Virus genome (UHGV): UHGV-1432856 | Source of the DNA: a virus | Reading direction: 5' to 3' (one strand) | DNA: 40,320 bases | Shown: piece after piece, positions 6,705-6,814 of the stretch | Layout: each line of letters begins with the position of its first letter | Position numbering within the stretch: position 1 is the first letter of the stretch | Position numbers and translations under genes: made by a program | The notes under the pieces: generated by a model | Told to the model about the DNA's origin: nothing | Databases searched by the model: none | What the model saw: the letters and a program-made list of their open reading frames with translations, nothing else

Positions 6705-6814
6705 GGGAATAAGTGAGATATTTATGGGAAGAACTGGGTCAAAATGGGAAGAGACTAGGAGGAATATGCAATAACCTTACAGTATGTGAAAATCAGACCG
6801 GCCCGAAAAAAAAC
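6705..6814. repeat. putative transposable-phage end region: four GGGAA[TG]A-like motifs plus a CGAAAAAAAAC tract
   Basis: GGGAATA 6705-6711, GGGAAGA 6726-6732, GGGAAGA 6746-6752, GGAATA 6761-6766, spaced 14-22 bp; CGAAAAAAAAC 6804-6814 recalls the CGAAAAAAAC in the Mu L1 end site. Noncoding and AT-rich. Confidence 0.35.

Follow-up and report, generated by a model that had tools for sequence, protein, structure and literature searches.

Packaging of phage Mu begins at the left end of its genome (PMC5977238). The same holds for BcepMu and phiE255, whose ends carry 23-bp imperfect repeats (PMC2920897), and in the B3-like phage PM105, which likewise packages from the left, host DNA of 0.6–2 kb is found on the right side only (PMC4777764). 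The transposase of BcepMu is annotated as Tn552-like, and small terminases of the gp27 family (PF11985) are encoded by BcepMu, B3 and Mu, as well as by the element described here. The packaging signal (pac) of Mu was reportedly mapped to about nucleotides 32–58 of the left end, by Groenen and van de Putte in 1985 and by Harel et al. in 1990. In pac phages such as SPP1, the pacL and pacR boxes are short and helix-phased, and are thought to be wrapped by an oligomeric small terminase.

Results

Boundary and insertion site of the element

The window (the whole stretch of DNA that was analysed, 40,320 nucleotides of the virus genome UHGV-1432856) contains, from position 6681, the left, mor-proximal end of a 37.6-kb transposable prophage of the BcepMu/B3 type, an element of an already known kind (Table 1). 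The host/phage junction was placed exactly at 6680/6681. Where other genomes matched the Mu-like element, the alignments began at 6678–6681, and from there onward the sequence matched Escherichia phage PhiKM at 99.8%; lambdoid matches ended at 6683–6686, with 6400–6683 matching lambdoid tail genes (T/tape measure H). A transposable-phage end had been proposed here in the initial annotation, and this was borne out; the exact TG tip lies at 6681, where the element reads TGATTAGACTTGAGATAAATGACAGGGAATAAGTGAGATATTTATGGGAAGAACTGGGTCAAAATGGGAAGAGACTAGGAGGAATATGCAATAACCTTACAGTATGTGAAAATCAGACCGGCCCGAAAAAAAAC.

Table 1. Coordinates of the left-end features of the element and of the genes related to them, as positions in the window.
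Feature	Coordinates	Strand	Basis or detail
Presumed left copy of the 6-bp target-site duplication, AACAGG	6675–6680		In the interrupted lambdoid tail gene; deduced from other insertions
Element tip, terminal TGA (5'-TG...CA-3')	6681–6683	+	Invariant at positions 1–3 in 31 relatives; preceding bases vary
Transposase-binding repeat L1 (23-bp unit), predicted site	6689–6711	+	Core GAGATAAAT at 6692–6700
Transposase-binding repeat L2, predicted site	6712–6734	+	Core GAGATATTT at 6715–6723, 23 bp from L1
Left-end-only array of four GGGA-type units in 10-bp phase; candidate pac/small-terminase site	6726–6760	+	
Units of the array	GGGAA 6726; GGGTC 6736; GGGAA 6746; degenerate (A)GGA 6757	+	
Conserved blocks at 10-bp spacing	6767–6791		TGCAA 6767–6771; TTACA 6777–6781; GTGAAA 6786–6791
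Intrinsic-terminator-like hairpin, early (mor) operon	6791–6835	-	A8 tract 6805–6812 (U8 on the minus strand) as loop, then UUUUCAC (6785–6791)
mor-family activator gene, last of the leftward early operon	6843–7232	-	Pfam Mor 1.3e-43; RefSeq annotation of identical copies
rve-type (Tn552-like) transposase, expected binder of L1/L2 and R1/R2	11862–13631	-	Pfam rve; homologues
Mu gp27-family small terminase, proposed reader of the GGGA array	20282–20827	+	PF11985 Phage_Mu_Gp27 1.3e-56

In E. coli the element, up to 100% identical over the left-end stretch, adjoined many different genes, and the particular junction of the window, between a lambdoid tail gene and the element, occurred in no complete E. 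coli RefSeq genome. A full copy of 37,566 bp (L001) was found between grxA and ybjC, reading TGATTAG...GCGCATCA. Two independent copies of the identical element, complete and inserted in E. coli, were flanked by 6-bp target duplications, TGAAGG in L001 and CCTGAG in Eco889; the latter was used in place of E. coli N196 and AR_0069, in which the duplication was sought and the far junctions were absent at the predicted distance. The AACAGG duplication is presumed by analogy with these insertions, because the right junction of the window copy falls outside the window. Varied chromosomal insertion sites, TG...CA termini and a short target duplication were thus all present in the element.

The first 6680 positions of the window belonged to the tail region of a lambdoid prophage (G/T chaperone; tape measure H at 3880–6441, minus strand), which the Mu-like element interrupts at 6680, forming a prophage within a prophage. 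In E. coli strains of the N196 type (L096/L097; NZ_CP189514.1, 100560–139500) the left end abutted cysE and ordinary host genes occupied the place of the right end, which suggests a truncated or rearranged copy.

Gene content

Oriented leftward, the early operon starts at about 15109 and has gemA and mor as its last genes; the late genes point rightward. Domains rve, AAA_22, Mor and GemA were detected with Pfam, and the inverted early operon places mor beside the left end. The transposase was 68–69% identical to that of BcepMu/phiE255 and 56–57% identical to that of B3; a BLASTP comparison with MuA gave no detectable similarity (E 0.41). Only rve was detected in it by Pfam, the domains HTH_Tnp_Mu_1 and Mu-transpos_C being absent, and the same search recovered Mu domains in the A transposase of D3112. 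The small terminase shared 23% identity with Mu gp27 (pairwise E 6e-10). Mu and the element of the window therefore carry related small terminases and unrelated transposases.

Two further regions were observed. An oppositely oriented gene (17314–17790, minus strand), labeled "ABC transporter ATPase" in identical copies, separates the immunity region from the lysis genes and is likely a moron. In L001, positions 37300–39570 contain a gene for a Gin-like recombinase, with tail-fibre and assembly genes in opposite orientations next to it. The arrangement is that of an invertible region like the Mu G segment, carried by a phage of the BcepMu type; no such region is present in BcepMu.

Repeats shared by both ends

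Comparison of the left end with the reverse complement of the right end revealed that the two G[AC]GATAWWT repeats, 23 bp apart, return inverted at the right end. Their cores sit at element positions 12–20 and 35–43. In register, TGAT-N9-GATAAATG was common to both ends, with GATAAATG at position 14 from either terminus, and in the E. coli element GTG[AC]GATA lay at position 33 in both ends, the second copy of the core falling at 35–37. The same two-repeat layout was found at both ends of BcepMu, phiE255, B3 and PM105, and the 23-bp imperfect repeats described for BcepMu and phiE255 are the equivalent of those found here (PMC2920897). Across 31 non-redundant left ends (≤80% identity, from 80 genomic loci and phage records), GAGATA occurred at position 12 in 25, and GATAA at position 14 in 21 and at 36–37 in 28. 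Clustered repeats in this stretch had earlier been read as transposase-binding sites; such repeats do exist, but they are the G[AC]GATAWWT units and not the GGGAA motifs.

A block specific to right ends, CGTTTC-N8-10-GCAAAAGAATT(A/T)CA, was common to the E. coli element, KP12, B3 and PM105 and lay about 55–85 bp inside the right end (L001, 39555–39590; right ends of L003, L087 and L090). The RefSeq record of phiE255 (L086, 23511–23979) is circularly permuted, holding 467 bp of packaged host DNA between the right and left ends, so that the start of this record is not the genome end.

A phased GGGA array restricted to the left end

Exact GGGAAKA occurred at 6705–6711, 6726–6732 and 6746–6752, all on the plus strand, with a one-mismatch copy, AGGAATA, at 6760–6766 (spacings of 21, 20 and 14 bp), and a repeat search returned ATGGGAAGA twice, 20 bp apart. 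The iterated motifs and the A tract of the initial annotation were thus confirmed, as three exact copies, one near copy and an A8 run. In the whole window, 16 GGGAAKA were observed on both strands against 7.1 ± 2.9 expected, and a cluster of three on one strand within 48 bp greatly exceeds what chance would give. The spacing of four motifs was initially given as 14–22 bp, but the true period is 10 bp: a TGGGTC copy (6735–6740) between the second and third had been overlooked, and the fourth motif, at 6760, is off the register of the family, whose conserved fourth position is 6756–6760 (TAGGA). The exact copies at 6726 and 6746 belong to the array, the first unit of which is overlapped by L2; the copy at 6705–6711 lies outside it, is the distal part of the L1 unit and corresponds to a GGG that is only weakly conserved there.

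Among the 31 ends, GGGA starts peaked at element positions 46, 56, 66 and 76 (16, 8, 8 and 12 ends, respectively) and were about 0 between these peaks. Of 82 GG+A spacings, 52 were multiples of 10 and 38 were exactly 10, compared with 4.6 ± 2.1 multiples of 10 (maximum 12) in 500 dinucleotide shuffles. The bases between units varied freely among lineages. When both strands were scanned genome-wide for phased arrays, the GGGA array alone ranked first in the window, L001, B3, PM105 and Mu; that of BcepMu and phiE255 was more degenerate and only tied, not unique genome-wide.

The array was conserved in the 31 diverged relatives and absent from all right ends examined. The first 100 bp held 0–2 GG+A motifs at right ends versus 5 at left ends, with 0 at the element's own right end. 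No inverted GGGAAKA was present there either, an outcome that the initial annotation had itself named as speaking against transposase sites; the conservation in related prophages that it had also proposed to check was strong. The conservation marks the GGGAA motifs as functional, though probably not as transposase sites.

The array in Mu and other phages

In Mu, units of the same type followed directly after L1 (GGGAG at 33, TGGAT at 43, GGGAT at 53 and GGGAT at 63), with TTGCA/TGCAA words next to them. The stretch occupied, 33–66 between L1 and L2, is presumably the region to which pac was mapped. The MuA-type phages Kp4866-3 and Vibrio 1.028.O showed the Mu-like pattern, and Pasteurella AFS-2018a showed it at 20-bp spacing. 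D3112, the single lineage serving as a negative control, combines a MuA-type transposase with a DUF1804 small terminase, and its left end had no phased GGGA array. Of the gp27-encoding MuA-type IMG/VR loci, whose element ends are undefined, several had no clear array within 3.5 kb upstream of the transposase, which with such ends does not count against the association; a systematic comparison of arrays with terminase type across the IMG/VR loci was only suggestive. The array tracks the family of the terminase and not that of the transposase, from which we infer that it is a pac or small-terminase recognition site.

Phased (T/C)GG(G)A arrays with a 10–11-bp period were also seen upstream of the transposase in several MuA-type IMG/VR contigs with undefined ends (L108, L114, L115, L121 and L123–L125), one of which, L125, carries three repeats of an 11-bp tandem, TAGGTAGGAAC.

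Conserved blocks and the hairpin downstream of mor

The blocks between the array and the hairpin had the consensus TGaAAA...TT.Ca....gTGAAA at positions 87–111 of the 31 ends, and the middle base of their arms co-varied among lineages (TGAAA/TTTCA, TGCAA/TTGCA, TGTAA/TTACA). They could be an ancestral terminator, and in lineages where mor ends earlier they could form the terminator hairpin; they could, on the comparison with Mu, which has TTGCA/TGCAA at the equivalent place, be part of pac; or they could be a protein site. On the minus strand, the GTGAAA block also supplies the U-tract of the likely terminator.

An IHF site in the blocks was rejected, WATCAANNNNTTR having no match at ≤1 mismatch in 6681–6842. 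An outward sigma-70 promoter (TTCACA-16-CATATT, 6790–6763, minus strand) was not adopted, because its -10 part was not conserved in relatives. The search for known RNA families (Rfam) returned only a chance sR30 match (E 0.2) in the host flank.

The sequences TGTGAAAATCAG (6785–6796) and CGAAAAAAAAC (6803–6813, containing the A8 run) had been likened to the Mu L1 site. This stretch lies 105–133 bp inside the element, the terminus having GAGATAAAT instead, and it folded on the mor-coding strand as a hairpin with a dG of -24.9 kcal/mol (z -4.82; 0 of 200 shuffles folded as well). The hairpin begins 8 nt past the mor stop codon, and its arms are the inverted repeat 6791–6806/6820–6835. Relatives carried unrelated GC-rich hairpins with clearer U-runs (5–6 U) at the same place, ending at TTTCAC (GTGAAA on the plus strand). 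Together, the hairpin and its counterparts point to TGTGAAAATCAG...CGAAAAAAAAC as the U-tract, 3' arm and loop of a probable terminator on the other strand, not a transposase site. A simple terminator scan did not call the hairpin because its loop is long; it has four U residues only and a stem with a 21-nt internal region. The early-operon terminator after mor is therefore graded as likely, not proven. A separate terminator ahead of the U8 run was rejected, as no hairpin precedes it and U8 is the loop of the larger hairpin.

Discussion

Taken together, the left end of about 160 bp (6681–6842) seems to pack transposase sites, a packaging signal and an early-operon terminator side by side, a reading to which a probability of roughly 0.55 is given. 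The GGGAA motifs and the array to which they belong are most likely a pac signal, the recognition site of the small terminase, and not transposase sites. The arguments for pac are the position of the array, its restriction to the left end and the parallel with Mu; on the same sequence evidence we infer that the array is bound by the small terminase and needed for packaging.

Under such an arrangement, the rve-type transposase would assemble on the two 23-bp-spaced repeats at the element tip, and an oligomeric gp27-family small terminase would bind the phased GGGA units. The bound small terminase would mark the left end and direct the terminase to cut into the flanking host DNA, from where headful packaging would start rightward. 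Speculatively, the 10-bp phase would let the oligomer contact one face of the DNA. Transcription of the leftward early operon would end after mor, at the hairpin followed by UUUUCAC.

The overlap of the first GGGA unit with L2 means that the transposase could contact part of the array. It could be argued, at a clearly lower likelihood than the packaging signal, that the units are extra left-end-specific sites for the transposase or for an accessory protein (the DUF3102 protein or the B-like ATPase), making the two ends functionally asymmetric in the manner of Mu L2/L3 or of the unequal TnsB sites in Tn7. Mu- and Tn7-type elements commonly have asymmetric ends, the units are sub-terminal, phased and abutting or overlapping L2, and an (A)GGG near position 25, weakly conserved, is present in L1 and missing in R1 of the right end. 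However, the motif has no feature in common with the G[AC]GATAWWT core and no inverted copies at the right end, and Mu carries this array too, alongside a transposase and att sites unrelated to those of the element. The L1–L2 spacer of Mu, home of the array, is not known to be footprinted by MuA, and D3112 is without the array despite its MuA-type transposase.

Slightly less probable again is an array that serves as a binding or bending platform for another factor (the phage repressor, Mor or a nucleoid protein of the host, or else intrinsic curvature), with a role in transpososome architecture or end protection rather than in packaging. The 10-bp phase puts all units on one helical face, as is typical of wrapping or bending arrays, HU binds the L1–L2 spacer in Mu transpososomes, and the adjacent conserved TGNAA/TTNCA/TGAAA blocks are likewise spaced by 10 bp. 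Against this, HU has no sequence specificity able to conserve GGGA, 6681–6842 contains no IHF consensus, the motif was not found again as a phased array in the immunity/operator region, and its conservation follows the terminase family across unrelated transposases. That GGGAAKA marks sites of the transposase (A protein) and TGTGAAAATCAG...CGAAAAAAAAC a Mu L1-like terminal site is highly improbable: the region is truly a transposable-phage end and the stretch superficially resembles CGAAAAA of Mu L1, but the inverted repeats of the other end are G[AC]GATAWWT and not GGGAAKA, the stretch is internal, forms the likely mor terminator hairpin and is not conserved in relatives beyond GTGAAA, and the transposase is rve/Tn552-like with no similarity to MuA.

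Returning to the packaging signal, four to five (C/T)GGGA units arrayed in phase with the helix may be a common pac "code" of PF11985 terminases in all Mu-, B3- and BcepMu-type phages, conserved though the transposition machinery was swapped, and the overlap with L2 may then lead transpososome and terminase to compete for the end or to hand it over. This wider proposal is tentative, and is held at somewhat below even odds. A search of the literature, with the original Mu pac, BcepMu and B3 papers outside its reach, returned no description of a phased GGGA array that is common to Mu and goes with gp27 terminases, which makes it a modest new and testable detail.

The analysis defines where exactly a Mu-like prophage, found at many sites in several hundred complete E. 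coli genomes, is bounded and how its end is built, and tells its transposase sites apart from a likely packaging signal. If the array is a gp27-type pac, it would provide a simple sequence rule for orienting transposable prophages and finding their packaging end, and would help to design mini-elements that transpose without being packaged, or the reverse. The poorly defined pac of Mu likewise becomes testable by comparative mutagenesis.

Comparison with known systems

The array resembles the pac boxes of SPP1 in being made of short phased boxes, although the proteins and sequences are unrelated and, unlike SPP1, the element would be packaged as an integrated genome and cut in flanking host DNA. 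In layout, the element has in common with the ends of the Tn552/Tn7 family at least two directly repeated sites per end, of about 22–23 bp and for an rve-type transposase, together with TG...CA tips and a short duplication of the target; it differs in being a phage genome that carries a likely packaging signal and a likely terminator in the same end.

The pac region of Mu is similarly located directly inward of the terminal transposase site, at the end from which packaging proceeds, and similarly consists of four (G/T)GGA-type units in exact 10-bp phase followed by TTGCA/TGCAA words, in a phage with a homologous small terminase. However, in Mu a single site (L1) precedes the array and L2/L3 lie about 80 bp deeper, whereas in the element the array comes after two sites, with no further ones found; neither the transposases nor their sites are related, and pac was mapped experimentally in Mu and is a candidate read from sequence in the element.

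The closest relatives are BcepMu, phiE255 and B3, whose left ends have the same TG...CA termini, two 23-bp-spaced G[AC]GATAWWT repeats per end and a GGGA-type array after the second repeat, and whose genomes have the same inverted early operon ending in mor beside the left end, an rve/Tn552-like transposase 57–69% identical to that of the element and a gp27-type small terminase. The element of the window differs from them in its enterobacterial host, in the Gin-like invertible tail-fibre segment at its right end, in carrying, between the conserved blocks and mor, an additional GC-rich, terminator-like hairpin whose loop is the A8 tract, and in the degenerate fourth unit (TAGGA) of its array.
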